A DNA stretch of 64,000 nucleotides from Candidatus Moraniibacteriota bacterium (lineage in GTDB: Bacteria; Patescibacteriota; Minisyncoccia; Moranbacterales; UBA2206). The stretch lies in assembly GCA_049303795.1 (NCBI GenBank), contig JBAQNM010000005.1:35228-99227 (forward strand). The letters run 5' to 3'. The notes below the pieces were generated by a model, which did not search any database, was not told the origin of the DNA, and was given only the letters and a program-made list of their open reading frames with translations. Position 1 is the stretch's first letter, and the number at the start of each line of letters is the position of its first letter. Positions 32,517 to 50,579 of the stretch are shown here, piece after piece. Made by a program: the position numbers and the translations under genes.

Positions 32517-32957
32517 CTACTCCATTCTCATGCCACCTCTCGTACGATGTCTCCTTGCCACTTTAATTCGAGCAGATTCTTTTTGAATAGCGGCAGCAAC
32601 ACGAGCATATTCATTTTCGTCCATTGAAACTCTTTGATTCTTGAGTTCTTCGGCTTTTTTTCGTCCTTCCTCAGCACGCTTCAAATCAATCTCCTCCGCT
32701 CGTTCTGCTGTATCAGCCAAAACAACAAGTTCATTGCCATGAAATTCAATAAAACCGCCGGAAATTGAAAGAAATATTTCTTTGTCATTCTTCTTAAGCA
32801 TCATCTCTCCGGCTTTAAGACTAGCAATATAGCTCCTATGATTTGGCAAAATTGTTATTTCTCCATCAGTGGTCGGCAAAGTCGCCTGATCAATCTCATC
32901 TTCAAAAACGGTTTTTTCTGGAGTGACTATTTTAAATTTTATTTTTAAATCTGTCAT
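32517..32957 (-). CDS. atpC: F1Fo ATP synthase epsilon subunit
   Basis: FKIVTPEKTVFEDEIDQATLPTTDGEITILPNHRSYIASLKAGEM...ISGGFIEFHGNELVVLAD is the canonical epsilon beta-sandwich. ATG at 32957, 11 nt after the atpD stop, is preferred over the track's TTG at 32993, which overlaps atpD. Confidence 0.85.
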   Translation of the reverse strand: MTDLKIKFKIVTPEKTVFEDEIDQATLPTTDGEITILPNHRSYIASLKAGEMMLKKNDKEIFLSISGGFIEFHGNELVVLADTAERAEEIDLKRAEEGRKKAEELKNQRVSMDENEYARVAAAIQKESARIKVARRHRTRGGMRME

Positions 32958-32967
32958 AAATTTTTTA

Positions 32968-34359
<1,392 letters not shown>

Positions 34360-34450
34360 TTAAATTTTTACTTTATTACAATTTATTAAATTCTAATCAC
34401 TAGCTATTTGCTTTATTTTAGCCAAATATTCACTGATTAGGATTTAAGGG

Positions 34451-34479
34451 TTGACTCTTTAGCAAACTTGGAGTATATT
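34451..34479 (+). promoter_or_regulatory. Promoter of the orphan small gene in the atpG-atpD gap
   Basis: TTGACT (34451-34456), 17-bp spacer, TATATT (34474-34479). Confidence 0.6.
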
Positions 34480-34541
34480 TACATGATTTAATTCCATGTA
34501 ATTAATTTCACAAAAATTCTTTAAGAAAAGGAGATGTGACT

Positions 34542-34706
34542 ATGAAAAATTTTATTATTGGATTAGGATTGGGACATGCGTTGGAAGCACTTTATGTACT
34601 TACAATGAATGTGCCACGTGAAAGTTTGGTCACCATTGCAGTATGCTGCTTTGCAATTTCGGCAGCATTAATTTTCTCAAAATTTAGGGAAAAAATATTT
34701 GGTTAA
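34542..34706 (+). CDS. Orphan 54-aa small hydrophobic protein gene with its own promoter, RBS and terminator, antisense within the atp operon gap
   Basis: TTGACT-17-TATATT promoter at 34451-34479. AAGGAG 8 nt before ATG 34542. ORF MKNFIIGLGLGHALEALYVLTMNVPRESLVTIAVCCFAISAALIFSKFREKIFG. Then a 12-bp stem hairpin plus T8 (34732-34772). Confidence 0.6.
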   Translation: MKNFIIGLGLGHALEALYVLTMNVPRESLVTIAVCCFAISAALIFSKFREKIFG

Positions 34707-34731
34707 ACTTAATACATTATTTTTTCCCGAA

Positions 34732-34772
34732 GCCGCTGACTCATCTATACCATGAGTTGGCGGTTTTTTTTA
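34732..34772 (+). terminator. Intrinsic terminator of the orphan small gene
   Basis: GCCGCTGACTCAT-CTATACC-ATGAGTTGGCGG forms a 12-bp stem (two G.U pairs) followed by T8. Confidence 0.7.
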
Positions 34773-34795
34773 TTTTCAATTTTCCAAAGAACTTC

Positions 34796-34900
34796 TATTG
34801 TCTGAACCACTGATTAGCATGTGATTATCCTGATTACACTGAAATTTTAATTCAGTGAAATCATGTGAGCTCATGTGATAATCAGTGGTTCAGATTATTG
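34796..34900. mobile_element. MITE-like element: 16-bp perfect terminal inverted repeats flanking about 62 bp, bracketed by TATTG direct repeats, abutting the atpG stop codon
   Basis: TIRs TCTGAACCACTGATTA (34801-34816) and TAATCAGTGGTTCAGA (34879-34894). TATTG at 34796-34800 and 34896-34900. The interior holds nested palindromes and three CATGTGA copies. No other copy seen in the window. Confidence 0.35.
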
Positions 34901-35854
34901 TTCAAGCGCCGCCATCCCCGCACTAATCTCCGCAATCTCTTGAGTAATTTTCATTTGACGAATTTGATTGTAGGCCAAAGTGAAATCATCGGCCATTTCT
35001 TTGGCAGCGTCCGTAGCGTTTCGCATGGCAACCATTCGAGCGGATTCTTTAGAAGCATTGGATTCCAAAATTGCATGATAGATCTGCATTTCAATGAGAC
35101 GTGGGATAATGTGATCCAAAACTTCCGCTGGACTTGGTTCAACCTTATATTCAGATTTTGGCTTCTTAAGTCCATATTCTTCCGCCAAAACATCCATCTC
35201 AGCCAATTGTTTTTCTAAGTCAATTTTTGAAAGTGGCAAAATTTGGCGCACTTTTGTTTCTTGCTTGATAGCGGAAACATAATCGGTATAGAAAATAACT
35301 ACCTTGTCATATTTTTTGGCTAGATAATCATCAATTACGACTTTCCCCACCGCTCGCACGGCTTCAAATTTTGGCAGATAGGTCAAATCATTAAACGAAG
35401 CAACAATTTCATTGCCAGTTCTCTTGACTACATTCTCCCCTTTTCTACCCACAGTAATAAAATCGATTTTCAATTCTTCATCAGTAATTTTTGATTCAAT
35501 TTTTTTGGTGCCGATTCGATTTATTTTCAAATTTTTTGGGTTAGCCAATTCTTCTTTGATTTTTTTGGTCAGTTGAGAATTGAATGATCCACAAAGTCCA
35601 CGGTTCGAAGTAATGGCAATGGCCAAAACACTTTTCACTTCGCGTACTTCCAAAAGTCCACCTTGTTTTTTTTCAAACGAACGCGCCAAGTTTGTGAGCA
35701 CACTCCAAGCACTATGAGCATACGGACGAATTGCCAGCACACTCGAAATAGCCCGGCGCATTTTTGCCGCACTCACCATTTCCATCGCCCGAGTAATTTT
35801 TCCAGTGTTCTGGATGGATTTTATTCGTCTTTTGATTTCTTTACCTGAAGCCAT
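34895..35854 (-). CDS. atpG: F1Fo ATP synthase gamma subunit
   Basis: N-terminal MASGKEIKRRIKSIQNTGKITRAMEMVSAAK and C-terminal ITQEIAEISAGMAALEQ helices typical of gamma. 319 aa. Confidence 0.9.
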   Translation of the reverse strand: MASGKEIKRRIKSIQNTGKITRAMEMVSAAKMRRAISSVLAIRPYAHSAWSVLTNLARSFEKKQGGLLEVREVKSVLAIAITSNRGLCGSFNSQLTKKIKEELANPKNLKINRIGTKKIESKITDEELKIDFITVGRKGENVVKRTGNEIVASFNDLTYLPKFEAVRAVGKVVIDDYLAKKYDKVVIFYTDYVSAIKQETKVRQILPLSKIDLEKQLAEMDVLAEEYGLKKPKSEYKVEPSPAEVLDHIIPRLIEMQIYHAILESNASKESARMVAMRNATDAAKEMADDFTLAYNQIRQMKITQEIAEISAGMAALEQ

Positions 35855-35874
35855 AAAATAATTTAATAAAATTA

Positions 35875-37383
35875 TTAGTTTCCGTTTTGATATATATCCT
35901 TAAAATCTTTAATCACTTTTTCCAGTTTTTCGATTATATCTTGGGTCAATTCTTTCTTCTCGGCAATCAATGTCAAAACTTCCTTGGCGCTGGAATCTAA
36001 ATATCTTTGGAAATCCGCTTCCCAAGCCTTTATCTTTGAAACTTCCACGTCATCCAAAAATCCGTTCGTGAGAGCATAGAGAATCGCTACCTGGTTTTCC
36101 ATTAGCATCGGTGCATATTGATCTTGTTTCAAAATTTCCACTGTTCTTCGGCCTCGTTCAATTTGGCGACGAGTGTTTTCATCGAGATCTGATCCAAATT
36201 GCGCAAAAGCTTCCAATTCTCGAAATTGCGCCAAGTCCAAACGAAGTTTTCCGGCCACTTTTTTCATCGCCTTAGTTTGCGCGGCTGATCCCACTCGAGA
36301 AACAGATAGCCCCACGTTCAAGGCTGGACGAATTCCTTTATAGAAAAGATCGGATTCCAAATAAATTTGCCCGTCAGTAATGGAAATAACATTAGTTGGA
36401 ATGTAGGCTGAAACATCACCTGCTTGTGTTTCAATGATTGGTAAGGCCGTGATTGATCCACCACCAAAATCTTTGTTTAGTTTAGCACTTCGCTCAAGAA
36501 GTCGAGAATGCAAATAGAAAACATCTCCTGGATAGGCTTCGCGTCCTGGTGGGCGCTTCAAGATCAAAGAAATTTGACGATAACTCCAAGCATGCTTGGA
36601 AAGATCATCGTAAATTACCAAAACATCTTCGCCTTTATCCATAAAATATTCTCCCAATGCGCAACCGGAATATGGAGCAACAAAAGAAAATGCCGCTGGA
36701 TCAGAAGCACCCGCCAAAACAATCGTGGTATATTCCATTGCACCTTTCTTTTCAAGTTCCGCAACAATTCGAGCAATCTTAGATTCTTTTTGCCCAATGG
36801 CCACATAGATGCATTTCATATTTTGACCTTTTTGATTGATAATTGCATCAATCGCAATGGCAGTCTTTCCAGTTTGGCGATCCCCAATGATAAGTTCGCG
36901 TTGTCCGCGTCCAACTGGGATCATCGCATCAATAGCCTTGATTCCGGTTTGCACTGGTTGATTAACAGATTGTCGAGTGATAACTCCCGGAGCAATTTTT
37001 TCAATTGGATAAAATTTATCAGAAACGATTTCTCCTTTGCCATCAATCGCTTGCCCCAAAGGATTGATTACTCGGCCGATCATATTTTCGCCTACAGGAA
37101 TCGACAAAATTTTTCCAGTTGATTTTACCTGATCACCTTCTTTGATTCCTGAGAATTCGCCCAAAATCATCGCACCGATTTGACCCTCTTCCAAGTTGAG
37201 CGCCACACCAAAAATTTCATTTGGAAACTCCAGCATTTCCGAAGCCATCACATCAGAGAGGCCAGAAATTTTGGCCACGCCGTCTCCAACTTCAAGCACC
37301 GTTCCAACTTTTTCAATTTGTGATTTATTTTCGAAACCTTCGATTTGTTTTTTCAACTGATCGATAATATAATTTTTATCCAT
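35875..37383 (-). CDS. atpA: F1Fo ATP synthase alpha subunit
   Basis: Walker [10 protein letters not shown]. 502 aa. Conserved alpha C-terminal helical domain. Confidence 0.95.
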
Positions 37384-37403
37384 AAAAATATATTTTTAAA
37401 ATT

Positions 37404-37805
37404 TTACTTAGTTAATTCTTTATTTAACTTTCTTAATTGCCCCTTAATACTCTGATCCAGAATATCGTCGCCCACTCTAATAATTATCCCCCCAACAACA
37501 TTCTCATCAATTTTTCTATTAATTAAAACTTTTTCTACTTTATATTTTCTTTTAATATATTCTTCAATTTTTTTCTCAGTCTCATCGTCCAGTTTTTCCC
37601 TGCTTATCAACTCCGCCTCAGCAACCTTATTTTTAATATTCCAAATACCATTAAAACTTTCCAAAATTTTTGGAAATAATTTACTTTGCCTATTTTTTCG
37701 AACAATTTGAGTAAAATTAAATACAGTCTTATCTACTTCTTGCGATGACTTATTTTCAGTTAACTCATAAAGGGTTCTCGCATATTGATTGGCAGTAATT
37801 TTCAT
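37404..37805 (-). CDS. atpH: F1Fo ATP synthase delta (OSCP) subunit, compact 133-aa form
   Basis: N-terminal ANQYARTLYEL and C-terminal VVGGIIIRVGDDILDQSIKGQLRKL match the delta/OSCP signature. Position between atpF and atpA. Confidence 0.7.
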   Translation of the reverse strand: MKITANQYARTLYELTENKSSQEVDKTVFNFTQIVRKNRQSKLFPKILESFNGIWNIKNKVAEAELISREKLDDETEKKIEEYIKRKYKVEKVLINRKIDENVVGGIIIRVGDDILDQSIKGQLRKLNKELTK

Positions 37806-37919
37806 AAACTATTTTTAATATCTTTATTATTCTTTCAATTCCTTTTTTTATTTTTTCTTTAAAATATCGTAACAGAGCACCTATTTATTATTTAGTAAAA
37901 TCACATAAAAGTCAACCTT

Positions 37920-38414
37920 CTAAATTTTCTCTTCTACGATCTTATCGATAGCCTCTTTATCATTCAATTTATCGATATTTTTTGTAATAATTTTTTCAGT
38001 AGCCAGCATTACAAGCCCTGCCACCTCACCTTTTGCCTCGTTTATTATTCTATTTTTCTCTTGAAGCGCTTTTTTCTCAGATGATTCCAATATTCTTCGT
38101 GATTCATCTTCGGCTTTTTTTATTATCTCTTCCTGATTTCTTTGTGCCAGTTCCGTAGAAGAACTCACTATTTTTTGTGCCTCTTTTTTAGCAGAAACAA
38201 TAATCTCCTTTTCTTTTTGATTAGCTTTTTCCAGTTTATCTTCAACTAGCCTTGCATTATTAAGCCCTCCTTCTATTTTTTTTCTTCGCTCATCAATAAA
38301 CTTTATAATTGGTCCGTATCCAAATTTATGCAATATCCAAACTAACAGACCAAAATTAATAAGTTGCGCCAATAAAATTTTCCAATTTAATCCCAAAGCT
38401 TCAAAAAGTTTCAT
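37920..38414 (-). CDS. atpF: F1Fo ATP synthase subunit b
   Basis: Single N-terminal TM (LLAQLINFGLLVWILHKFGY) then a long charged helix. 164 aa. Positioned between atpE and atpH. Confidence 0.8.
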   Translation of the reverse strand: MKLFEALGLNWKILLAQLINFGLLVWILHKFGYGPIIKFIDERRKKIEGGLNNARLVEDKLEKANQKEKEIIVSAKKEAQKIVSSSTELAQRNQEEIIKKAEDESRRILESSEKKALQEKNRIINEAKGEVAGLVMLATEKIITKNIDKLNDKEAIDKIVEEKI

Positions 38415-38496
38415 GTTTTTTTCTTAAAATATTATTATTAAAAAATAAATTAGTTCAGCCTTTTTTATTTCTAAAAAAAGCTAGACTATTTATCTC

Positions 38497-38733
<237 letters not shown>

Positions 38734-38762
38734 TTAAATTAATTATTTATTATTATTTAAAA

Positions 38763-39521
38763 TTAAACCCTAACCTCTTCTCTTTTCTCTTTTTTTTCAA
38801 TTTCACAGGCCATAGAAATAAATATCAGTGTCAAAAGAGAAAAAACAAATGCTTGAATAACAGCCGTCAGAAGTCCCAAAAAAGCAAATGGCAATGGAAT
38901 AATAAAGGGGGCGAGAAAAAGAATCACCGATCCCAAAACTTCACCAGCAAAAATATTTCCAAAAAGTCTGAATGACAAGGAAAGAACCTTGGCTATCTCT
39001 CCAATTAAATCCATAATGCCTAAAACAAAAGCCAGGGGGCTTTTAAAGTTGATGAATTTACCAATATAACCAAATGGGCCATGCACGAAAATTGTGACTA
39101 TTTGAACAGTTATAATCGATATCATTGTCAGAACAAATACCATACCATAATCTGACATAATCGCTCTAAATGGAACGATATCTCCATTTTTAGTGTGAAT
39201 CAAGACTGCGGCTTGTCCTGGAATAAATGTGATGAGATTGGCAAAAACAATAAAAATAAACATAGTAAAGATCAAAGGGAAAACCCTTCGCGCCTTCTCT
39301 TTGTTTCCCATGATACTTTCAACCAACCTCATCCCCTCTTCGATGAGAAGCTCTAGGACAGCCTGCGCTCTTCCAGGAACTGCCTTAAGAGAAAAACGCA
39401 TAGCCAGTGTGATAACAATCAAAATTACACTTAAAATAACTGACCAAAATAAAGTATTAGTCACCGGCAAAGAGCCTAGATTGAAAAGTATTTGAGGAGC
39501 AAGAGATATGTCTAGTTTCAT
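38763..39521 (-). CDS. atpB: F1Fo ATP synthase subunit a
   Basis: Conserved FRLFGNIFAGEVL with the essential Arg. 252 aa polytopic. Confidence 0.9.
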   Translation of the reverse strand: MKLDISLAPQILFNLGSLPVTNTLFWSVILSVILIVITLAMRFSLKAVPGRAQAVLELLIEEGMRLVESIMGNKEKARRVFPLIFTMFIFIVFANLITFIPGQAAVLIHTKNGDIVPFRAIMSDYGMVFVLTMISIITVQIVTIFVHGPFGYIGKFINFKSPLAFVLGIMDLIGEIAKVLSLSFRLFGNIFAGEVLGSVILFLAPFIIPLPFAFLGLLTAVIQAFVFSLLTLIFISMACEIEKKEKREEVRV

Positions 39522-39527
39522 ATAAGA

Positions 39528-39782
39528 TTATTTCTTAGTTGCTTTGCTTTTATCTAGAACCATCTTTTTTGATAAAACATTTCGCTTTTTGAAAAGCAAG
39601 ACATTTGAAACCAAAAAAGAAATTCCGATGCTTATAAGTAAAAATTTCGGACTGGAGTTAAAATTTCTATCTGCGACGTAACCGATTACTCCCAAAAAAA
39701 TCATTGGACCAAAAATATACATACCGCTATATGTCGCTACTTTAAAAAATATCTTCATAACTTTTTCGTCTTTAAAAAACAT
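39528..39782 (-). CDS. AtpZ/AtpI-like small membrane protein (ATP synthase protein I family)
   Basis: 84 aa with two TM helices. GPMIFLGVIGYVADRNFN pattern. Immediately upstream of atpB. Confidence 0.5.
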   Translation of the reverse strand: MFFKDEKVMKIFFKVATYSGMYIFGPMIFLGVIGYVADRNFNSSPKFLLISIGISFLVSNVLLFKKRNVLSKKMVLDKSKATKK

Positions 39783-39964: not shown

Positions 39965-40003
39965 CAAAAAAACGGTGTCTTGGAAATAATACCAAAACAC
40001 CGC
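39965..40003 (-). terminator. Terminator at the end of the Ehr-like operon, before the canonical atp operon
   Basis: Minus strand: CGGUGUUUUGG-UAUUAUUU-CCAAGACACCG then UUUUUUUG. 10-bp stem with one mismatch. Confidence 0.55.
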
Positions 40004-40038: not shown

Positions 40039-40959
40039 TTAATCAAAGCGGACAAATTGAATCTTTGTATCATTATCAATTAGTCGGGCATAAACCTTAA
40101 CAACCCTCACATGAGGATATTTTTTAAGAATTTTATGCTCAAATATATACATTTGATTTCGCTGAAATATTTCTTCGTCAAACCCATTGAGAGATTTGAT
40201 AATCCCCTTATATGCACCACAATCAGCATGCTGCAATATATAGACAGTTTTACATCCATGCCTTTCGATTGCCACCTTGAGCGCCTTCCAGGAAACCATC
40301 GCTCCTTTCAAAAAACTCTGCGCAGATCCGGGTATTCCAACAAGATCAAGTGCTTGAATTTTAAATGAATCACGAATACAAAGTCGCGATTCTTTTCTAA
40401 ATCTAAAATCCAAGCACAGAACTAAAACCGCCTCACATTTATATACGCCTCTAAACCAATAAGGAGCAACCATTCTAACCGACTCCTTGCCATTATCAAA
40501 AACTTCAACTAGTTCAACTTCGGTGTTTTCTCTTATCAAGCGAGCATATATCGCTCGAACCTCTTTTTTCGGATAATCTCTCCTGATTTTTAACATTGAT
40601 GCAATGAGGCCTTTTTTGTGAAAATAATCCTCCTCAAAACCACTATCAAATCTCGTAGATCTCCCGCCGTTGTGAAAATCTACATGCTGGAAAAGAGTAA
40701 CGAGTTCTATGTTGTGTTTTTCTATTGAAAGCTTGAGTGTTTCCAGAACAGTATTACTTTCAGAAAGAAAGTTTTTTGAAAAAGCCGGAATTCCCAATAA
40801 GTCGAAAGATCTTACCCCAAGTGAATAATCCATGCATTGAAGCATTACCGAAGAAAAATTGAAACTAATCGGCATTGCCATAATTGCTTTGCAATTATGT
40901 ATTTTTTTGTACAAAAACGGAACTGTCGCCAATACTTCTCCATTCAGATTATTATCCAA
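40039..40959 (-). CDS. Tandem-duplicated beta-carbonic-anhydrase-like protein: degenerate N-terminal half, apparently intact C-terminal zinc site
   Basis: Internal repeat, N-terminal half versus C-terminal half: LGIPAFSKNFL...LKLSIEKHNIELVTLFQHVDFHNGG...VRAIYARLIRENT versus LVGIPGSAQSFL...LKVAIERHGCKTVYILQHADCGAYKG...VVKVYARLIDNDT. The C-terminal half has CLDFR (CxDxR) and, 62 residues later, HADCG (HxxCG). The N-terminal half has these ligands replaced (MAMPISF, HVDFHNGG). TTG start with GAAGGAG 7 nt upstream. Confidence 0.5.
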   Translation of the reverse strand: MDNNLNGEVLATVPFLYKKIHNCKAIMAMPISFNFSSVMLQCMDYSLGVRSFDLLGIPAFSKNFLSESNTVLETLKLSIEKHNIELVTLFQHVDFHNGGRSTRFDSGFEEDYFHKKGLIASMLKIRRDYPKKEVRAIYARLIRENTEVELVEVFDNGKESVRMVAPYWFRGVYKCEAVLVLCLDFRFRKESRLCIRDSFKIQALDLVGIPGSAQSFLKGAMVSWKALKVAIERHGCKTVYILQHADCGAYKGIIKSLNGFDEEIFQRNQMYIFEHKILKKYPHVRVVKVYARLIDNDTKIQFVRFD

Positions 40960-41070
40960 TTCAACGCTCCTTCTTTATCATCATTTGTTAAATAACCAAA
41001 TTGAAAACTATGCCCAATGCATAGTCTCCCCCTTCTTCTATTTTAAATTAATATTTTCTAATTTTCATAT

Positions 41071-42633
41071 CTACAAATCGTTTCCGGAATACGACAAATT
41101 CAAACTCTTATTGATAAGCGGAAAATCAGGCACGATGTTGCCCGGTCCCATAATGCCAAAAAGTGCCCAATTACAAAAGGATGGATCACGCGGATAGCAT
41201 CTTTCGATCACACCATTCTTAATTTGCAAGGCACAGATTATTTCTCCTCTCCAAGATTCCACGGCACCAATCGCAAAACCATTCTTAACTTCGCATTTTT
41301 CAAAAACATCTCCTTCTCCTATTTTTTCCACTAAAGTTTTGAGTAAAATTATCGATTGTTCAATTTCTTTTATTCTCATTCTATAGCGAGCAAAAACATC
41401 AGTGCTTTTTTTGGTAATAACTTTAATTGGGAACTCTGCATATGAAGCATAAGGATGATCTCTTCTGACATCACGATCAACTTTGGAAGCACGCGCCGGT
41501 AAACCGACAGCCCCAAAAGCCTCAGCTGCCTCCTTGGGAAGTTCGCCCGTGTATTGCAACCGATCCAAAAAGCCCTCGCTATCCAGAGCAATTTCCACAA
41601 TTTTGTCTATTTCCTTAAAAACCCCTTGCGACACCACTAGTATTTTTTCTAAATTCTCCTTCTTAATATCACCTTTCATTCCTCCTGGAACAATCATCCC
41701 CCGCCAAAAACGATTACCACAAATATCAGCTGACAAGCGCATCATCCTTTCTTTAATGCGAAATCCATTGGCGGCGATAAAACTATACCCTGTTCCCATT
41801 CCTCCAATATTAGAAAGATCATGTGCATGCATTGTAATTCTTTCACATTCAGTGAGGATGGCTCGCAAAATTTGTGCTCTTTTTGGCACCGTGCAGTCGC
41901 TAATTTTCTCCACCGCTTGCGCATAGGCCAAAGAATGTGAAGCACTCATATCGCCAGAAATTCTTTCAATAAAGGGCAAAGCCTCGTTGATATTTTTTCC
42001 TTCCAATAATTTCTCCACTCCCTTATGAGTAAAAAATAATTTTCCTTCCAAAGTCAAGATTCTTTCTCCTGCCACATTAAAACAAAAATGTCCCGGCTCA
42101 ATAATACCAGCATGAATCGGTCCGACAGGAATTTCCATCACTCCCTCGCCTGTTACATGATGCATCGGATAAGGAACATTATCCTTGGACAATTTCGTAT
42201 TCCACTGAAAATCTTTTCTTAAGGGGTGTGTATTTTCTGGGATATTTTCATGATGCACCAATCTTCGCAGATCCGGATGTCCCACTGGCGTGATACCAAA
42301 CATATCGCGCAAATATCTTTCATACCAATGAGTTGCCATGATTGTTTTTGTCAAAGCCGGATACTGCGGATCGCTAGCCGGCACTTCGGCTGAAATTTTC
42401 AGCCATTTGCTTTCCTGATCCAAACTAAAAACAACGTGCACGACAAAATTTCCGGTTTCCTTGCGATTATCTGTTCCGAAAAGAAGAGACAGTGGAAGTT
42501 TATCCTCCTGGAATAACTCGGTGGAGATTTGCGCTAAATCGTTTCGAGAAACTTTAATACTCACCAAATCACTCCCTTCCTCAATACTAAGAATTTTTTC
42601 TTTGAATTTTTTAATAATTTCTTGAGTTTTCAT
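41071..42633 (-). CDS. Fused NuoC/NuoD-type large subunit of a group-4-hydrogenase-related (Ehr-like) complex, lacking [NiFe]-binding cysteines
   Basis: N-terminal NuoC-like part. Then GPIHAGIIEPGHFCFNVAGERILTLEGKLFFTHKGVEKLLE, the HycE/NuoD signature. Candidate L1 position reads ERISGDMSASHSLAY (no CxxC). C-terminal DPSFCNWA has one Cys instead of DPCxxC. Confidence 0.75.
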   Translation of the reverse strand: MKTQEIIKKFKEKILSIEEGSDLVSIKVSRNDLAQISTELFQEDKLPLSLLFGTDNRKETGNFVVHVVFSLDQESKWLKISAEVPASDPQYPALTKTIMATHWYERYLRDMFGITPVGHPDLRRLVHHENIPENTHPLRKDFQWNTKLSKDNVPYPMHHVTGEGVMEIPVGPIHAGIIEPGHFCFNVAGERILTLEGKLFFTHKGVEKLLEGKNINEALPFIERISGDMSASHSLAYAQAVEKISDCTVPKRAQILRAILTECERITMHAHDLSNIGGMGTGYSFIAANGFRIKERMMRLSADICGNRFWRGMIVPGGMKGDIKKENLEKILVVSQGVFKEIDKIVEIALDSEGFLDRLQYTGELPKEAAEAFGAVGLPARASKVDRDVRRDHPYASYAEFPIKVITKKSTDVFARYRMRIKEIEQSIILLKTLVEKIGEGDVFEKCEVKNGFAIGAVESWRGEIICALQIKNGVIERCYPRDPSFCNWALFGIMGPGNIVPDFPLINKSLNLSYSGNDL

Positions 42634-42644
42634 AAAAAATTTTT

Positions 42645-44123
42645 CTATTTAATGAATAAGAAGGTGCTTACTATATTTTCAATCAACTCTATTGAGCTTC
42701 CAATTGTGAACCACCAAGCTAAAAATATCAGAATTATAATTTCTATAACAATTATCGTGTGAGTACTATTCCATTTTTCTTTTTTAATTTTATCCTCCTC
42801 TTTTTCCTCTTGAGTATCAAAAACCATACTAACCGTCAAGAGTAACATCGCATAAGCAATTATTCCCAGAGCAATAAACAAGAAAATGGAAAGCACTGGA
42901 TAAAGAACAATCGCTTGTGAAAAAATTCCATATTCACTTACAAATAGGGCGGACGGTGGAATGGCAATAATCGCTACGATACCAAGAATAAAAAGAATGC
43001 TAGTATATTTTGAATACTTAAACATGTTTTTTATCTTGAATACTTTTGTTGTTTTCCACTTAAGCAAAATCTCGCCTGCTCCGAAAAATAAAGCTGACTT
43101 AGCAAAAGTGTGACCAATCATATGCATAACTCCAGCCATTGCGCCTACAGGAGAAAGTCCCAAGGAAAAAACAACCAAACCCATATGCTCAACACTGGAA
43201 TAAGCTAACATTCTTTTGTAATTCTTTTGAATAAGTATCATAAAAGTTGCCAGTAGTATAGAAAAAAATCCGAAAATCAAAAATAAATTATTAGTCCAAG
43301 CTGGATCCATAAAAGCACTGTCAGTGATAAATTTGAAACGTAAAATAGCATACAAAGCAACATTCAATAACACGGCGGAAAAAATAGCGGAGATCGGAGA
43401 TGGAGCTTTACTATGAGCATCCGGAAGCCAAGTATGCATTGGTGCCAAACCAACTTTTGTGCCAAAACCGATAAACAGAAAAATGAAAGCTAATTTTAGA
43501 ATATCTTTTGGAATAAGATGGGCGTTTTTAGTTAGATTATCCAAAAGGAAAATATTTCCTTCCTCCATTCCACCAACATGAGCGCCATAGCTAAAAAGCA
43601 AAATACCAATCAATCCCAAACTAATACCAGTTGAGCAAAGAACCATATATTTCCAAGCCGCTTCCATGCTTATTTTCTTGCGATATAATCCGACTAAGAA
43701 AGTTGAGGAAAGAGTTGTTCCCTCCAAAAACAACCAGAGCAAAAGAGTATTATTTACCAAAACAGTCAAGATCATGCACAAAACAAACAATTGAAACAAG
43801 ACAAAATATTTTTTATAGTCTGAAAAATTAATTACTTTTTCCTCATACTCATGCCCAATATAACGAACACTGACAATTGTAGAAAAAATATAAATAATGG
43901 AAATAAGCGTTATCATTAATGCTGAAAAATAATCCAGTTGCCACCAAGAACCAACTATTTTATTTTGAGAAAGAAATAGAAAAAATAAAGCAGAAAAAGA
44001 TAGTGCTGACCCGCCAATTAAAGAAAAAAATAAATTGCTCCATCTTACTATTTTTTCAGTTTTTGCCACTGCTGAAAAAATGGCGGCTAATATAAATGGG
44101 ATAATTAAAATAGTCATATTCAT
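42645..44123 (-). CDS. Proton-pumping antiporter-like subunit (NuoM/NuoN/MrpD/HyfD family)
   Basis: 492 aa with 14 predicted TM helices. GLAPMHTWLPDAHSKAPSPISAIFSAVLLNVALYAILRF core motif of the Proton_antipo_M family. Confidence 0.8.
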   Translation of the reverse strand: MNMTILIIPFILAAIFSAVAKTEKIVRWSNLFFSLIGGSALSFSALFFLFLSQNKIVGSWWQLDYFSALMITLISIIYIFSTIVSVRYIGHEYEEKVINFSDYKKYFVLFQLFVLCMILTVLVNNTLLLWLFLEGTTLSSTFLVGLYRKKISMEAAWKYMVLCSTGISLGLIGILLFSYGAHVGGMEEGNIFLLDNLTKNAHLIPKDILKLAFIFLFIGFGTKVGLAPMHTWLPDAHSKAPSPISAIFSAVLLNVALYAILRFKFITDSAFMDPAWTNNLFLIFGFFSILLATFMILIQKNYKRMLAYSSVEHMGLVVFSLGLSPVGAMAGVMHMIGHTFAKSALFFGAGEILLKWKTTKVFKIKNMFKYSKYTSILFILGIVAIIAIPPSALFVSEYGIFSQAIVLYPVLSIFLFIALGIIAYAMLLLTVSMVFDTQEEKEEDKIKKEKWNSTHTIIVIEIIILIFLAWWFTIGSSIELIENIVSTFLFIK

Positions 44124-44145: not shown

Positions 44146-45747
44146 TTATTGTTCGGTTAATTCACATAAATCTTCCGTATCCGCGCTTCCGCATAAATCA
44201 TTTATTTGACCGCTTAGTATCGATAAAATATAGGCCGTGGCCACCGTTACAGTAAAGATGCCAAATTCAATCATGATTGGCAATGAGCCCACGGTTGCCA
44301 AAACAAAAATAGCAATCCCGTTTTCTATCACTAGGAGTCCAACGACTTGAGAGAAAATATTTCTTTTAACAATCATCATCGTTATGCCTAAAAGAATTGA
44401 AGTGACTGAAGCATAAAGTAATGAATCCCATTCTACTAACCCCACGACAGAAACATTTCCCAAAATAAAATAACTCGCGATTAAAATAATAATGGCTAAA
44501 AAATAACTCTTTCCTGGACGTAAAAAAGAAGGCAGATTTGTTAGACTTTTCTTAGCATGACTGGAATGATTAATCACATAAGGCACAACTAAAACTTTGA
44601 TTACGATTGTGAAAATGGCAAATATCCATAAATGAATTTTTTCTTCTTCACCTACCAAAGAAATGAGTCCCCAAGCAATTCCAGCAATAGCCAAAGACGA
44701 AAAAGCATAATAACGCAAAATCGCTCTCAAGCGGACTCGACCGAAAAGAAGCACGATGCAAACTACAGTAAAAAGAGAAAACAAAGCGTGGCATTGCAAA
44801 GATATTTTCATAAATGTTGTCAGAAAAGCCACGATCATTCCCAAAAATGCCACAGCAAAAGCCACGGAAAAATATTCTGACATTCTGTAAAATCGCATCT
44901 TAACCAAAACAGATTCCAAGAAAGCCAAAAATCCCATTGCCACAATAATTTTTATCAACGCAAAAAATAAACTGCTCATAAAAATACCCGCACTCCAAGA
45001 GGATACTCCCATTAAAGTTCCGGGGAAGATAAAATTAGCCACTAGCAAAGAAAAAACTGTCAATTTTATAGCAGAGGCATATTCCAATAAAGCCAGATAC
45101 TTGCCGGAATATTCCAGTATCATCGCTTCATGCACCATTGTGAGCTCTAAATGAGTAGCGGGATTGTCCACGGGATAACGAGCATTTTCTGCCAACGCCA
45201 CTAAAATCAAAGCAATGATTGTCAAAATTAAATATGGCTCAAAAAAATCGATTCGATCAAGAAGCATTCCGTTAATGGTTGACTCTTTAGTGACAAAACT
45301 AATCGTAGAAAAAACCATAATTATCACCGGCTCCAAAAGAGCACTGATAGTCATTTCCCGACTTGAACCCATTCCGCCAAAAGCGCTACCAGCATCCAAT
45401 CCCCCCAACACTAAAAATATTGACCCAACAGACAACACTCCCGCTACCACTAAAAAATCACTGAGAGCCATTCCGCTAGCATTAGTAAAAATAAGCGGGA
45501 GAATCACCACCAAAAAAACTGCGCTTCCGAAAACCACAAACGGCACTATCCGAAAAACCCAAGAAGTCACATTTGATATGACCATTTCCTTTTTTAGTAA
45601 AGTAGCAAAAGTAACATATGGCAAAAAAGGCGAAGCACCTTTTCTCCCCTGAAGACGAGCTTTGAGAAAACGGACCAAGCCTGAAGCGAAAGGAGCGACA
45701 GCTAAAATGAAAATAATTTGAATTAATGTAGAAATTACTATGTTCAT
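44146..45747 (-). CDS. HycD/NuoH-like membrane subunit fused to an additional C-terminal membrane domain (HyfE-like?)
   Basis: N-terminal LVRFLKARLQGRKGASPFLPY matches the NuoH/HycD RMQ.R.GP motif. 533 aa is about 220 aa longer than NuoH, with an extra polytopic C-terminal half. Confidence 0.65.
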   Translation of the reverse strand: MNIVISTLIQIIFILAVAPFASGLVRFLKARLQGRKGASPFLPYVTFATLLKKEMVISNVTSWVFRIVPFVVFGSAVFLVVILPLIFTNASGMALSDFLVVAGVLSVGSIFLVLGGLDAGSAFGGMGSSREMTISALLEPVIIMVFSTISFVTKESTINGMLLDRIDFFEPYLILTIIALILVALAENARYPVDNPATHLELTMVHEAMILEYSGKYLALLEYASAIKLTVFSLLVANFIFPGTLMGVSSWSAGIFMSSLFFALIKIIVAMGFLAFLESVLVKMRFYRMSEYFSVAFAVAFLGMIVAFLTTFMKISLQCHALFSLFTVVCIVLLFGRVRLRAILRYYAFSSLAIAGIAWGLISLVGEEEKIHLWIFAIFTIVIKVLVVPYVINHSSHAKKSLTNLPSFLRPGKSYFLAIIILIASYFILGNVSVVGLVEWDSLLYASVTSILLGITMMIVKRNIFSQVVGLLVIENGIAIFVLATVGSLPIMIEFGIFTVTVATAYILSILSGQINDLCGSADTEDLCELTEQ

Positions 45748-47735
45748 AAGGCAAATATTAAAGTGATAGTTAGGGCAAGCAAAAGAAACAAAATATAATA
45801 TTGAATTCGACCACTCTGGATAAAGCGAATCTTTTCCGCCATCAAGAATAATCCCCTTGCGATCGGAGCATACAGCGCATCACTCCAAATTGAACGAATA
45901 GACAATTGAAATTTATATTTTCTAATCCATTGATTTGTTTCTATTACAGCATCTGATTGCATAACTTTTTTTCTGCCAATAAAAGTAAGAAAGAAAAATC
46001 TTATCGGTGCAGAAAAAGCCGTAGCGCTATATTGCATAGTAGCATCAATCGGTTGACCGCAATCCCAAGTATTATAAAATCTTTCTTTTTTATTTTTTAA
46101 TAAAATTTTCTGAAAAACATAAATTAATATTCCAAAAATAATGATAACCGCACTAATTGAGAGCGAAGAAATATTCACTGGAATTTCAGAAAAAGAAACT
46201 TGACTTGAAAACGAAGACTGGATATGTGAAACGATATTGGTAATGAAAAAATTAGCCAAAATTGCAAAAATAATCAATCCGCCAGCTAAAAACAATATTG
46301 GCAAGATCAAAAGAAAATCCAAATTTTCTTTTCTTTTTTCCATATGAGTATTATGAGGTAATCCCAACATCGAGATGCCAAATATTTTTATCATGGCAAA
46401 AATAGCTAACCCGCTGATCATCGCCACTAGAGAAAGGGTGGTAATTAGTAGCATAACGGTATTTGAACTAATTCCCGGTTCGTTCATTAAAGCTAGGATA
46501 TTTTGAATTAAACCCCATTCTCCATAAAAAGTTCCGAATGCTGGTAATGGCAAAGATCCCAAAATAGACAAAAGAAAAACAAAACTAAAGATAGGCATTA
46601 ACTTGGCGATACCACCCATCACTTCCAAGCTTTTAGTATGCACCCTATTTATTATCACTCCACTGGAAAGAAAAAGAGCAGTTTTAAACAAAGCGTGATT
46701 CATCGCATGAAAAATTGCAAAAGCGATTATGGAGTACGCGATTATTTGATAATCTTTCAGGGCTAGCAAATAAATAGCTAAACCTAGCATTGTAAAAATA
46801 ATTCCCATGTTTTCTATACTGCTATAAGCAAAAGCTTTTTTAATATCTCTTTCCACTACCGCATATAAAACGCCAATCACTCCCGACAAAAGACCTAGGA
46901 TAAGTACGATAATGCCTGCCCATCCGGGGATGCAACAGAAATTCAAAATAATCATAATAAAGCCATAGACAGCCACTTTCAACATCAGTCCACTCATCAT
47001 TGCTGAAATATTACTTGGTGCTTGAGGATGAGCCTCAGGAAGCCAAACATGAAAAGGCACCAATCCTGCCTTGGAACCAAAACCAAAAACAAATAAAAGA
47101 AAAGCTAAATTCAAAAGTCCCGGAGATAGATTCCGAGAAGCCTCATTAATATTGTCAAAATTAAAAATAAACTCTCCAGAGCCCAAAATCAAAAATCCAC
47201 CCAAAATTGCTGAGGCCCCCAAATGAGTCATTATGAAGTATAAAAAAGCCGCCTTGATTGATTCAGGTTTTTTATCAGAGAAAACCAAGAAAAATGAAGT
47301 TATCGACATTACCTCCCAAAAAAATAAAAAAGCGAAAGAGTTGTTAGAAAGCAACACCCCTTGCATACCCAAGACAAATCCGGACATCAAAAATTGAACT
47401 GTGCGAGGGTTATAATCGTTCTTATAAAGCTCAAGGTAGCGCAAACTATAAATTCCCACCAAAGAGGAAACTCCACTTATGATAGCGAAGAAAATAGCAC
47501 TCACAAAATTCAATCTCGGAGCAAACTCAAAAAACCAATTAAAATTAAACAGTGTGAAATTGCCAGTGGAAAAGAAAAATAAATATCCTAAAGAAGACAA
47601 AAATCCAATTCCATTGGAAAGGATGAATAATTTTGTTCCGCCATTAAAAGGCTTGCCAAAAAAAGCTAGCACAGCCGACGAGATCAAGCCAATCAAATAG
47701 ATTCCTATTCCAAAAATAATATAATTTTCCAACAT
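45744..47735 (-). CDS. Proton-pumping antiporter-like subunit, long form (NuoL/MrpA/HyfB family)
   Basis: 663 aa. GLVPFHVWLPEAHPQAPSNISAMMSGLMLKVAVYGFIM core. Long C-terminal extension as in NuoL/MrpA. 4-nt overlap with the next gene. Confidence 0.8.
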   Translation of the reverse strand: MLENYIIFGIGIYLIGLISSAVLAFFGKPFNGGTKLFILSNGIGFLSSLGYLFFFSTGNFTLFNFNWFFEFAPRLNFVSAIFFAIISGVSSLVGIYSLRYLELYKNDYNPRTVQFLMSGFVLGMQGVLLSNNSFAFLFFWEVMSITSFFLVFSDKKPESIKAAFLYFIMTHLGASAILGGFLILGSGEFIFNFDNINEASRNLSPGLLNLAFLLFVFGFGSKAGLVPFHVWLPEAHPQAPSNISAMMSGLMLKVAVYGFIMIILNFCCIPGWAGIIVLILGLLSGVIGVLYAVVERDIKKAFAYSSIENMGIIFTMLGLAIYLLALKDYQIIAYSIIAFAIFHAMNHALFKTALFLSSGVIINRVHTKSLEVMGGIAKLMPIFSFVFLLSILGSLPLPAFGTFYGEWGLIQNILALMNEPGISSNTVMLLITTLSLVAMISGLAIFAMIKIFGISMLGLPHNTHMEKRKENLDFLLILPILFLAGGLIIFAILANFFITNIVSHIQSSFSSQVSFSEIPVNISSLSISAVIIIFGILIYVFQKILLKNKKERFYNTWDCGQPIDATMQYSATAFSAPIRFFFLTFIGRKKVMQSDAVIETNQWIRKYKFQLSIRSIWSDALYAPIARGLFLMAEKIRFIQSGRIQYYILFLLLALTITLIFAL

Positions 47736-47741
47736 ATAGTT

Positions 47742-48284
47742 TTATTTTATTCTTCCGTCTTTTAAAGCGTTTAGAATTCCAGTTAAAATATCTGTCGGTG
47801 TCGGAGGATCGCCTGGAATTTTAATATGCACCGGAATCACATTTTCCACCGGCCCCACTACCGCATAGGAATCCTTCCAAATTCCTCCATCGCAAGCTCC
47901 ATCTCCAATAGCCACCACAATACAAGGCTTTGGGACAGCTTCATAGGTCGTCAGCAAGGCTCTTTCAAGATTTCTAGTTACTGAACCACTAACAAACAAA
48001 ATATCGGCGTGACGCGGAGATGCTACAAAACTCAAACCAAATCTATCAATATCATAATAAGCATTGCCAAGAGCAGTCAGTTCTATCTCTTCAGCATTTG
48101 TCGAACCGGCGTCCACTGCTCGAATACGCAATGATCTGCCACCATAAAGATTTTTGATAATATCTTTTATTTCTTTTCCGGTTTTTTCAAAAGTAGCTTT
48201 TTTTTCGGATAAGAAAAAATCCTCTTTCTTTTGGGTAACTTTTTTTCCAAACAATAATATATTTATTAGTCCTAAAGTTTTCAT
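47742..48284 (-). CDS. NuoB/hydrogenase-small-subunit-like protein lacking 3 of 4 Fe-S cysteine ligands
   Basis: RFGLSFVASPRHADILFVSGSVTRN...PKPCIVVAIGDGACDGG is strongly NuoB-like. The CCxxE motif reads AVDAGSTNAEE and PGCPP reads PGDPP. Confidence 0.8.
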   Translation of the reverse strand: MKTLGLINILLFGKKVTQKKEDFFLSEKKATFEKTGKEIKDIIKNLYGGRSLRIRAVDAGSTNAEEIELTALGNAYYDIDRFGLSFVASPRHADILFVSGSVTRNLERALLTTYEAVPKPCIVVAIGDGACDGGIWKDSYAVVGPVENVIPVHIKIPGDPPTPTDILTGILNALKDGRIK

Positions 48285-48458: not shown

Positions 48459-48947
48459 CTAGAGCATAGCTTTTTCAATTATTTCTTTGTCTTTTTGAGA
48501 ATCTAATTTTTCATAAATTATTTTTTCCGTAGCCACTATAACTAAATTAGCAATCTCCGCTCTTACTTCAGAAAGCATTTTTGTCTTCTCTTGATCAATA
48601 TTCTCCTTAGCATCTTCAATCATTTTCTTATTCTGTTCTTTTGCCTGATTTAGCACATCTTCAGAAATCCTGATCGCATCCTCCCTGGATTTTTTGATAA
48701 TTTCCTGCGCTTCCTTCTTGGCTACTGTTAATACTTCTTTTTCCTGTAAAGTTATTTCTTCTAATTTTTCCGAGGCCTCCTTGGAATCTTTGAGACCTTT
48801 CTCGATCTTTCTTGTTCTGTCGTTGAGTGTTTTTAGAATCGGTTTATAGGCGAATTTATACAACACTAAAAGAACAATGATAAAATTTACCATTTGTGCC
48901 AGAAGCAAATTAATCTCAATGTGAAATGTTTTTATTAGTTCATCCAT
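48459..48947 (-). CDS. Second copy of F-type ATP synthase subunit b
   Basis: 162 aa. N-terminal TM (LLAQMVNFIIVLLVLYKFAY) then a long charged helix. Same LLAQ..NF..L motif as atpF at 37920-38414. Confidence 0.7.
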   Translation of the reverse strand: MDELIKTFHIEINLLLAQMVNFIIVLLVLYKFAYKPILKTLNDRTRKIEKGLKDSKEASEKLEEITLQEKEVLTVAKKEAQEIIKKSREDAIRISEDVLNQAKEQNKKMIEDAKENIDQEKTKMLSEVRAEIANLVIVATEKIIYEKLDSQKDKEIIEKAML

Positions 48948-49024
48948 AAAAATAAATTTATAATTTTTAATTCTATAACAATCTCATTTCGATTCCGTCG
49001 AAACGGAACCAAAGAAAACTACTA

Positions 49025-49249
<225 letters not shown>

Positions 49250-49328
49250 TTATTTTAGAAGTCGACTCGATTTTTTATTTTAAAGTCGCTTGAAAAATAA
49301 AATTTAAAAAAATTAATTAACTAAAAAA

Positions 49329-50180
49329 TTAATGCTCTGCGTGACTTTCTGAGGCTATTGTCATAAAAACCATTGTGAGTATCGCAAATATGAGAGCCTG
49401 AATTATTCCAACAATTATCTCTAAAAACATAAATGGTAACGGCAGAAAATAAGCAAAAATAGCCATCATCGAAGCTAAAAGTACTTCGCCAGCAAAAATA
49501 TTTCCAAAGAGCCTGAAGGTAAGAGAGGCTGTTTTTGCCACCTCGCCAATAAGCTCCACAATACCCACAAAAGCTTTAATTGGATTGACAAGTATTATGG
49601 AAAAATCTTTTTTTATCTTTCCTGGAATTTCCAAGAATGCTTCAAAATTAATAAATTTATTCAGATGTTTCCAAATTCCAATTGCTAGAATTCCCGCAAT
49701 ATGAGAAGCAACAATTGCGAAAAGTGCCAAAGCCAATGTAGTGTTGATGTCGGCCGTAGCCCCTCGAAGAATCGGCACAAAAACTCTATGCACTCCGTCA
49801 ACTTCGTTAAAACCGATTGTTCCAAAGCCTGGCAAAAGCCCGAGCCAATTATTCACTAAAATAAATAGAAAAAGGGCTAGCGAAATTGGCAGAAACTTTT
49901 CAGTCTTTTTCCTCTCTCCGGTGATGCTATCTCCCAACTCTAAGGCTTTTTCAAGAATTATTTCAAAAATATTTTGAATTCCATCAGGAATCCTTTTGAG
50001 TTTTTTGCCGGCTAGAATGAAAACAACAACTAGAATAAAAACTGCTATCCAGCCAGAAATCAAAGAATTGGTAACAACAAATTCGCCAATATGAAAAACC
50101 GGCTCAGCAAATAAAGTTGCCTCGTGAGAAAACTCCTGATTCAAATTTCCATTATTATTTTGTGGTTGATGTTCTGCCAT
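49329..50180 (-). CDS. Second copy of F-type ATP synthase subunit a
   Basis: FRLFGNIFAGEVLLASMMAIFAYFLPLPF with the essential Arg. 283 aa. Confidence 0.85.
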   Translation of the reverse strand: MAEHQPQNNNGNLNQEFSHEATLFAEPVFHIGEFVVTNSLISGWIAVFILVVVFILAGKKLKRIPDGIQNIFEIILEKALELGDSITGERKKTEKFLPISLALFLFILVNNWLGLLPGFGTIGFNEVDGVHRVFVPILRGATADINTTLALALFAIVASHIAGILAIGIWKHLNKFINFEAFLEIPGKIKKDFSIILVNPIKAFVGIVELIGEVAKTASLTFRLFGNIFAGEVLLASMMAIFAYFLPLPFMFLEIIVGIIQALIFAILTMVFMTIASESHAEH

Positions 50181-50183
50181 ATA

Positions 50184-50465
50184 TTATTTTTTTGATATTA
50201 CATTCTTTCTTTTTTCCTCATCCTTATTCTCGATTCTTTTCATCTCCTTAATTGCATCTCTTGTTATTCCCACTGTTGAAATAATAAAAGCAAATCCGAT
50301 ACAAAGAAGAAATAGCCATGGCTCAGTTTTATATTTTTTATCCAACCACCTACCAATAAAAAGAGCAAAAATAACTGGCCCTGCAATCCAACCAGAAAGT
50401 CGATAAAATAAAACCAAACCTGGCTGCCACCAAGGCGCCGTAGATTTTTGTTTTTCTTTTTCCAT
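50184..50465 (-). CDS. AtpZ/AtpI-like small membrane protein preceding the second Fo gene set
   Basis: Start taken at internal MEKEKQK. WWQPGLVLFYRLSGWIAGPVIFALFIGRWLDKKY resembles the AtpZ pattern of 39528-39782. The track ORF extends to 50528. Confidence 0.45.
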   Translation of the reverse strand: MEKEKQKSTAPWWQPGLVLFYRLSGWIAGPVIFALFIGRWLDKKYKTEPWLFLLCIGFAFIISTVGITRDAIKEMKRIENKDEEKRKNVISKK

Positions 50466-50579
50466 ATTGAAAAAATATTTAGTATATAAATCAATATATA
50501 TTGTGAAGCAGGATTGCGAAAATGTCAATGGTCTGAAATTTTTTAAAATCCTTTTTTAGGTTTCGCTAAGCATGAAAAT

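Follow-up and report, generated by a model that had tools for sequence, protein, structure and literature searches.

What would a carbonic anhydrase (CA) do at the end of a gene string made up of ATP synthase and complex I-like genes? The question is posed by a 64,000-nucleotide (nt) stretch of the genome of a Candidatus Moraniibacteriota bacterium (GenBank assembly GCA_049303795.1, contig JBAQNM010000005.1, positions 35,228 to 99,227 of the forward strand), hereafter the window, whose own numbering is used throughout. On its minus strand, a gene of 306 codons opening with TTG follows genes for the membrane sector of an ATP synthase and for a complex I-like module of the Ehr type described in bacteria of the candidate phyla radiation (CPR). 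An initial annotation had read the product as a duplicated beta-CA with a single working site and had proposed that it handles CO2 vectorially as a subunit of the Ehr-like module. The first of these claims is supported by our analysis: judging from its sequence, the protein is very probably a CA in which two copies of a single fold are fused, with only one copy able to bind zinc. The second is unsupported as stated, gene order being what stands behind it, and we favor a role in proton supply instead.

That the gene encodes a beta-CA fold with a single intact catalytic site is almost certain. Pfam PF20393 (Pro_CA_2, 'putative carbonic anhydrase') matches the protein in two stretches with 60.6 bits (E = 2.3e-16; gathering threshold, 30), and a Pfam scan extended to E = 10 returned no family beyond Pro_CA_2 and, weakly, Pro_CA; no NCBIfam model matches the protein. 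A single-sequence search against PDB sequences gave no match to E = 10. A profile of 81 sequences, comprising the C-terminal half and its single-domain relatives, retrieved beta-CA-family chains only, the best being Cab (PDB 1g5c, E = 1e-3), and the CxDxR and HxDCG motifs of the profile fall on the zinc-ligand motifs CMDSR and HTDCG of Cab. An unrelated fold, named beforehand by the initial annotation as the outcome that would speak against it, was thus not encountered. The AlphaFold2 model, computed from 23 homologues (pLDDT 90.6, pTM 0.88), consists of two Pro_CA_2 domains only, and the top CA matches of this model in Foldseek are themselves tandem CAs, namely 1ddz and CsoSCA (2fgy, 9g4t). 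The protein displays the hallmarks of the beta class: an alpha/beta fold with a two-fold pseudo-dimer and, in the C-terminal half only, the Cys-His-Cys ligand motif and the Asp-Arg dyad. The fold assignment itself is not new, given that databases already name the protein a carbonic anhydrase: NCBI holds an identical 306-residue protein titled 'MAG: carbonic anhydrase [Candidatus Moraniibacteriota bacterium]' (MAG, metagenome-assembled genome). The features of the gene are as follows.

40967..40970, minus strand: Shine-Dalgarno-like GGAG, 7 nt 5' of the TTG (by reading the sequence)
40039..40959, minus strand: tandem Pro_CA_2 (beta-CA-like) gene, 306 residues, stop codon included (open reading frame list, Pfam PF20393, NCBI identity, AlphaFold2)
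40495..40935, minus strand: N-terminal, predictedly degenerate Pro_CA_2 domain, residues 9-155 (BLASTP of the halves, profile)
40858..40872, minus strand: PISFN, residues 30-34 of the N-terminal domain, in place of CxDxR (profile alignment)
40672..40686, minus strand: HVDFH, residues 92-96 of the N-terminal domain, in place of HxDCG; His kept, Cys replaced by Phe
40042..40479, minus strand: C-terminal, predicted catalytic Pro_CA_2 domain, residues 161-306 (profile, alignment with Cab 1g5c)
40402..40416, minus strand: CLDFR, with Cys182 as first predicted zinc ligand and the Asp184-Arg186 dyad (aligns with CMDSR of Cab)
40216..40230, minus strand: HADCG, with His244 and Cys247 as second and third predicted zinc ligands (aligns with HTDCG of Cab)

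The duplication and the one-sided loss of ligands are facts of the sequence and not the product of chance, because two comparisons recover the duplication. Aligned by BLASTP, residues 9-155 and 161-306 are 29% identical over 147 positions with one gap (E = 3e-26), and all four pairs of matching motifs quoted in the initial annotation are present in the alignment. A profile of 80 single-domain relatives, from which the window protein was excluded, matches both halves end to end (residues 15-153 with 79.8 bits, residues 171-304 with 112.3 bits). The CiDFR of this profile is aligned with PISFN in the N-terminal half and CLDFR in the C-terminal half, and its HaDCG with HVDFH and HADCG, respectively. 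Only the C-terminal half keeps both motifs, which begin at residues 182 and 244 and hence are 62 residues apart, just as had been noted initially.

Cys182, Asp184, Arg186, His244, and Cys247 are invariant (23/23) in the full-length homologues, which share 39-58% identity with the window protein. Their N-terminal counterparts are also highly conserved, in the altered form: Pro30 in 20, Ser32 in 22, Asn34 in 22, His92 in all 23, and Phe95 in 21 of the homologues. The N-terminal half is therefore devoid of two of the three zinc ligands and of the Asp-Arg dyad, in the place of which it has Ser32 and Asn34; since a single His cannot form the canonical site, this half is predicted to be catalytically dead. 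Mean pairwise identity is nevertheless 51.1% in the N-terminal half versus 47.3% in the C-terminal half, with the former exceeding the latter in 191 of 253 pairs, and Cys23, His82, His92, Glu110, Asp111, and His114 are invariant in the N-terminal half. Both halves carry additional residues that are conserved family-wide and atypical of classical beta-CAs, i.e., a Cys at position -7 from the first ligand, the His of an 'LH' motif, and EE..H. We also considered His21, 9 residues before Pro30, as a substrate-binding residue contributed by the partner domain, akin to the Gln/His of beta-CAs; this position is His in only 12 of the 23 homologues and is not relied on. No signal-peptide-like N-terminus was seen on reading the sequence, and no hydrophobic segment is present (maximum 19-residue Kyte-Doolittle window, 1.33), so that the protein is best read as soluble and cytoplasmic.

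Two known tandem CAs offer structural parallels. The beta-CA of Porphyridium purpureum (PDB 1ddz) is likewise a tandem repeat, both halves of which bind zinc, whereas in the window protein only the C-terminal half would do so. The two proteins also differ in domain size (~240 versus ~145 residues) and family (PF00484 versus PF20393) and are only ~10% identical. The initial comparison with CsoSCA (PDB 2fgy, 9g4t, 8thm), a duplicated beta-CA fold with one dead domain, holds as an analogy. In CsoSCA, the dead domain is C-terminal, an extra helical domain precedes the catalytic one at the N-terminus, and the enzyme is targeted to the carboxysome. The tandem protein, by contrast, has its dead domain at the N-terminus and no extra domain, its gene has no carboxysome genes around it, and the Pfam matches listed for it to E = 10 do not include CsoSCA_cat, indicating that it is not a member of the CsoSCA family.

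A family-profile search of 1.84 billion cluster representatives (50% identity clusters; E up to 1e-3) yielded 1569 matches, of which about 20 clusters are tandem proteins of ~300 residues and the remainder proteins of 130-160 residues matching the C-terminal half. CxDxR...HxxC is present in almost all of the ~130 single-domain relatives listed. The named sources are CPR lineages (Moranbacteria, Parcubacteria, and Patescibacteria), one Negativicutes MAG, and one Deltaproteobacteria MAG. Thus, single-domain and tandem proteins belong to the same family, have the same ligands, and share a habit of adjoining F-ATPase operons, described below, but the former have 130-160 residues with one intact site and are presumably homodimers, whereas the latter are fused heterologous pairs with one dead site. 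One candidate for a free-standing dead domain (P0054, 162 residues, matching the N-terminal half only) was rejected as a fragment on a 709-nt contig, with a cluster mate of 309 residues. A 905-residue protein from a JGI metagenome (P0078) contains two Pro_CA_2 units, each with CxDxR and HxxC (11/79 and 189/257), followed by ~600 residues; judged by its motifs, neither site of this tandem form is degenerate. At another locus (L094 9561-10583), two adjacent single-domain Pro_CA_2 genes (open reading frames of 157 and 154 residues), both with intact CMDFR and HxDCG, sit downstream of an ATP synthase operon and a Nramp-like gene; this pair resembles an unfused version of the tandem protein, encoded by two genes.

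Around the tandem gene, the minus strand of the window is organized in the following order, with a DUF4349 gene coming after the second atp operon.

48459..50528, minus strand: first F0 gene set (atpI-like, a, c at 49025-49237, b), head of the Ehr/CA gene string
47742..48284, minus strand: NuoB-like, three of four cluster cysteines lost (Pfam)
45744..47735, minus strand: NuoL-like (Pfam)
44146..45747, minus strand: NuoH+K fusion, 533 residues (Pfam)
42645..44123, minus strand: NuoM/N-like (Pfam)
41071..42633, minus strand: NuoC-NuoD-like fusion, 520 residues, NiFe cysteines absent; directly 5' of the CA-like gene (Pfam, alignment)
41003..41029, minus strand: weaker hairpin, 11 pairs and a weak T tail, in the gap between the NuoCD-like and CA-like genes
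39972..40003, minus strand: intrinsic-terminator-like hairpin, 12 pairs (6 GC), then TTTTTT, 36 nt 3' of the tandem-gene stop
32517..39782, minus strand: second ATP synthase operon, with all its genes (atpI-like, a, c, b, delta, alpha, gamma, beta, epsilon), immediately downstream of the CA gene

The strong T-tailed terminator makes the tandem gene the last cistron of the atpI-a-c-b/Ehr-like string, the position first ascribed to it, and a promoter-like site for the next operon is found 3' of the terminator. The module upstream is predicted to be cofactor-less and of the Ehr type, again as initially described, because the cluster cysteines of the NuoB-like protein and the NiFe cysteines of the NuoCD-like protein have been lost. 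In the latter, ERISGDMSASH and NLSYSGNDL replace the Cys motifs of NiFe hydrogenases, and ERxSGDMSxxH/NLSYSGxDL are kept in 6 orthologues; genes for NuoE, NuoF, NuoG, and NuoI are absent from the gene string of the window. The module fits the description of the CPR Ehr clade, which is related to group 4 hydrogenases and has lost the metal-binding cysteines (Jaffe et al. 2020, PMC7304191). Neither 'carbonic' nor 'ATP synthase' occurs as a word in that paper (0 occurrences each).

How firmly is the tandem gene tied to these neighbors? We counted 11 independent contexts of the tandem gene (relatives are designated by locus numbers, L), 7 of which are Ehr-linked and 4 of which are without a neighboring Ehr module. 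In all 7 Ehr-linked contexts (the window, L004/L005, L007, L008, L009, L010, and L093), the NuoCD-like gene is the immediate upstream neighbor of the tandem gene. L007-L010 all read ATPase beta-epsilon, Ehr, CA, and in L008-L010 DUF4349 comes next. The linkage spans two Ehr subtypes, the NuoCD proteins of which are only 40-42% identical. The two subtypes can also be told apart by the NuoH-like and NuoK-like proteins, which form one 533-residue fusion in the window type and are encoded by two genes (~310 and 219 residues) in the second (L007 5285-6886, L009 5259-6849). Among the contexts without Ehr, L001 has ATPase epsilon, a single-domain Pro_CA_2 gene, and the tandem gene, L006 has ATPase epsilon, a gene for a 265-residue protein of unknown affiliation, and the tandem gene, and in L090 the tandem gene comes after a single-domain gene.

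Seen from the side of the module, the picture is different. Among 80 NuoCD-like loci from species-representative genomes, only L010 has any Pro_CA_2 gene, and 9 of the 10 CPR Ehr loci in this set are without one, although some of these loci extend only ~2 kb downstream; no other conserved gene was found in the slot after NuoCD in the remaining CPR Ehr loci. The co-occurrence with the Ehr operon that the initial annotation had put forward for checking is therefore borne out by most tandem genes but not by most Ehr loci, nor by the family at large, the regular neighbor of which is the F-ATPase. The link between the tandem CA gene and Ehr is facultative in both directions.

Of 76 metagenomic loci with single-domain Pro_CA_2 genes, 27 have F-ATPase genes adjacent to them; among the 23 loci whose flanks reach 5 kb or more upstream and 2 kb or more downstream, the count is 10. 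The usual arrangement is beta-(epsilon)-CA on one strand; in others, the CA gene lies upstream of atp a or is divergent from it. By our own estimate, a gene in a ~1-Mb genome would lie this close (a few kb) to one given operon by chance in ~1% of cases. Because single-domain genes recurrently adjoin F-ATPase genes, the family-level partner is the F-type ATP synthase operon and not Ehr, which lies between the ATPase and the tandem CA in a subclade. The c subunits of all readable CA-linked atp operons carry FAEA[IV]AIY. In the window, the atp cluster has received Ehr together with the CA gene, and the position of DUF4349 marks the rearrangement: the gene lies after ATPase epsilon in the window (31401-32408) and after the tandem CA gene in relatives (L001 11024-12001, L008 11101-12042, L009 10878-11975, and L010 12771-13988). 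The placement of the tandem gene beside ATPase and Ehr genes is non-random.

We propose, with a probability of about 0.55 for the whole statement including the physiology, that the protein is a cytoplasmic Pro_CA_2 pseudo-dimer with one site, which supplies and buffers protons for the F-ATPase and the Ehr module. The beta-CA homodimer is obligate; the 306-residue chain would amount to such a dimer fused into one polypeptide. The C-terminal domain would bind one zinc per chain and catalyze the reversible reaction CO2 + H2O <-> HCO3- + H+ at the single site, and the N-terminal domain would complete the active-site cleft from the other side, in the manner of the second subunit of a beta-CA dimer; it might also serve as a docking surface. 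In a fermentative CPR cell, the ATPase probably works in the direction that generates an ion gradient, and the CA could turn CO2/bicarbonate into a fast proton source and buffer for an H+-type F-ATPase; the Ehr/Mrp-like module would be served in the same way. We propose this role because the tandem gene sits beside atp and Ehr genes and because the family trails F-ATPase operons. A comparable part, that of supplying H+-ATPases, is ascribed to CA II in animal cells that secrete acid. Unlike the fold, the duplication, the residue pattern and its conservation, the terminator, and the gene order, all of which can be read directly, zinc binding, CA activity, and proton supply are predictions.

Several points weigh against this proposal. 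Gene order is what suggests the proton-supply role, and in one context (L003) no ATPase or Ehr module lies next to the tandem gene. The gap between the NuoCD-like and CA-like genes in the window is 111 nt long and, because it holds the weaker hairpin and a promoter-like site (41068-41040, minus strand), the CA gene may be transcribed independently and thus be partly uncoupled from the Ehr genes. The classical beta-CA family PF00484 (Pro_CA) stays below threshold (15.6 versus 25.7 bits, E = 0.02) and covers residues 225-258 only. Finally, no characterized PF20393 member was found, all matches coming from uncultured MAGs or metagenomes, and the searchable literature yielded nothing for PF20393.

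An ordinary housekeeping beta-CA, providing bicarbonate for carboxylations and having a location that reflects no more than genome compactness in CPR and local synteny, is an unlikely alternative. The complete set of canonical catalytic residues is compatible with it, and L001, L008, and L009 have in common a synteny block of ATPase-(Ehr)-CA-DUF4349-LeuRS-NTP_transferase-Nramp, so that some of the counted contexts are inherited rather than independent. However, the ATPase link recurs in several arrangements across single-domain members as divergent as 20-34% identity to the C-terminal half, chance adjacency is put at only roughly 1%, and the window gene retained its Ehr neighbor through the rearrangement.

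We regard as rather improbable a vectorial, energy-coupled CA, in which the dead N-terminal domain docks on the Ehr-like module (on NuoCD/NuoB or an antiporter-like subunit) and ion translocation is linked to CO2 hydration or bicarbonate dehydration, along the lines of DabA-DabB or CupA/B. In favor of this reading, whenever Ehr is present, the tandem gene comes directly after NuoCD, in 7 contexts and both Ehr subtypes; Ehr and the CA gene were relocated jointly in the window; the dead domain is better conserved than the catalytic one; and in L004 and L011 a second beta-CA-like (CsoSCA_cat-like) gene precedes the NuoB-like gene. The closest mechanistic precedent is DabA/DabB, which the initial annotation had left out of account. 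DabA is cytoplasmic and has two beta-CA-like domains with a single Cys/His/Cys zinc site and an Asp-Arg dyad, and its partner DabB is a NuoL-like proton-translocating protein of the complex I type (PMC13144422; bioRxiv 10.64898/2026.05.01.722082). The two-domain, one-site plan and the NuoL/M/N-like gene neighbors are features that the tandem protein has in common with this system. DabA, however, has ~800 residues or more; its N-domain is helical and 280 residues long, its active site is buried, and a helix-loop-helix finger is inserted in the membrane (PMC13144422). At 306 residues, the tandem protein has no helical N-domain, finger, or other membrane-inserting helix or extra domain such as anchor DabA on DabB, which places it outside the DabA family, and its partner would be a six-protein Ehr-like module with a facultative link rather than a lone DabB. 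In the cyanobacterial NDH-1MS/MS' complexes, CupA/CupB (ChpY/ChpX) is a CO2-hydrating protein seated on a complex I-type antiporter module. By sequence, CupA/B is not a recognized member of the beta-CA family, and redox-coupled NDH-1 drives it, in contrast to the cofactor-less module of the window; neither a DabA- nor a Cup-family match was found in the Pfam scan of the tandem protein to E = 10. The four tandem genes without a neighboring Ehr module, the 9 of 10 CPR Ehr loci (species-representative genomes) without a Pro_CA_2 gene in the DNA covered, and the intergenic gaps of 55-339 nt before Ehr-linked tandem genes, with no translational coupling, also argue against docking on Ehr, and CPR bacteria are not generally known as autotrophs in need of a CO2-concentrating mechanism. 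It is quite improbable that the conserved dead domain docks on either the Ehr-like module or the F-ATPase, which would make this the third independent energy-coupled beta-CA system after Cup/NDH-1 and DAB.

Very unlikely, lastly, is another role of the beta-CA fold, such as a COS/CS2 hydrolase or a CO2/bicarbonate-sensing regulator of the ATPase or Ehr with the N-terminal domain as effector: the extra conserved residues of both halves (Cys -7, the 'LH' His, EE..H) and the stronger constraint on the N-terminal half would suit it, but the neighborhood offers no specific evidence of sulfur-compound metabolism and the complete Cys-Asp-Arg-His-Cys set is what CO2 hydration requires. CS2/COS hydrolases limit substrate access by special oligomers or tunnels.

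No function is known for Ehr complexes, and CPR bacteria have an ATP synthase but, to our knowledge, no respiratory chain. A family trailing ATP synthase operons, a half-dead fusion trailing Ehr, and Ehr modules within or beside atp operons together point to a link between CO2/bicarbonate and protons in CPR membrane energetics. Should the tandem protein dock on Ehr, it would provide a minimal model for vectorial CAs; docking on either Ehr or the F-ATPase would imply that, in ultra-small CPR bacteria that are not autotrophs, the interconversion of CO2 and bicarbonate is coupled to an ion translocation that feeds the ATP synthase, and could supply the first concrete chemistry for the enigmatic Ehr complexes. 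If there is no docking, the results would still be the first functional hint for the uncharacterized PF20393. In the searchable literature, we did not find a fusion of this kind, with the dead domain placed first (the reverse of the CsoSCA order) in a protein far smaller than DabA, nor the conserved place after the Ehr NuoCD, nor the habit of PF20393 genes to trail F-ATPase operons.

The loci surveyed contain further associations of this kind. CPR Ehr-like modules lie repeatedly inside or beside F-ATP synthase operons (L040, L027, L007-L011, and L022): in a Saccharibacteria MAG (L040 1-12955), a five-gene Ehr module separates atp gamma from atp beta, the module comes after ATPase beta/epsilon in L027 and L007-L011, and in L022 the ATPase operon is convergent to the module, about 5 kb off. 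No mention of this embedding was found in Jaffe et al. 2020. The second beta-CA-like gene, immediately upstream of the NuoB-like gene in L004 (1522-2553) and L011 (3036-4232), matches Pfam CsoSCA_cat with 29.6 bits (cut-off, 21.5) and has CMDGR and an H...C motif, so that the L004 Ehr module is flanked by two different CA-like genes. Just upstream of the tandem gene of L003 is a gene (9531-9914) for a 127-residue CaMKII_AD/SnoaL-like protein, the fold of which is that of iota-class CAs.

The window itself has two divergent F0 sets (48459-50528 and 37920-39782) but only a single F1 set. The genes of set 1 are orthologues of the F0 genes found in relatives: the a, c, and b subunits are 78%, 93%, and 66% identical to those of L001, and the c subunit, with FAEAVAIY, looks H+-type. 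Set 2 is divergent from the relatives (31% for a, 51% for c, and 38% for b), and its c subunit carries GPAIGEG and ITESTGIY, resembling the Na+-binding signature of Ilyobacter tartaricus. The delta subunit of the window is 41-47% identical to that of relatives, and alpha, gamma, and beta are 68-84% identical. This arrangement could mean that two alternative membrane sectors serve one F1.

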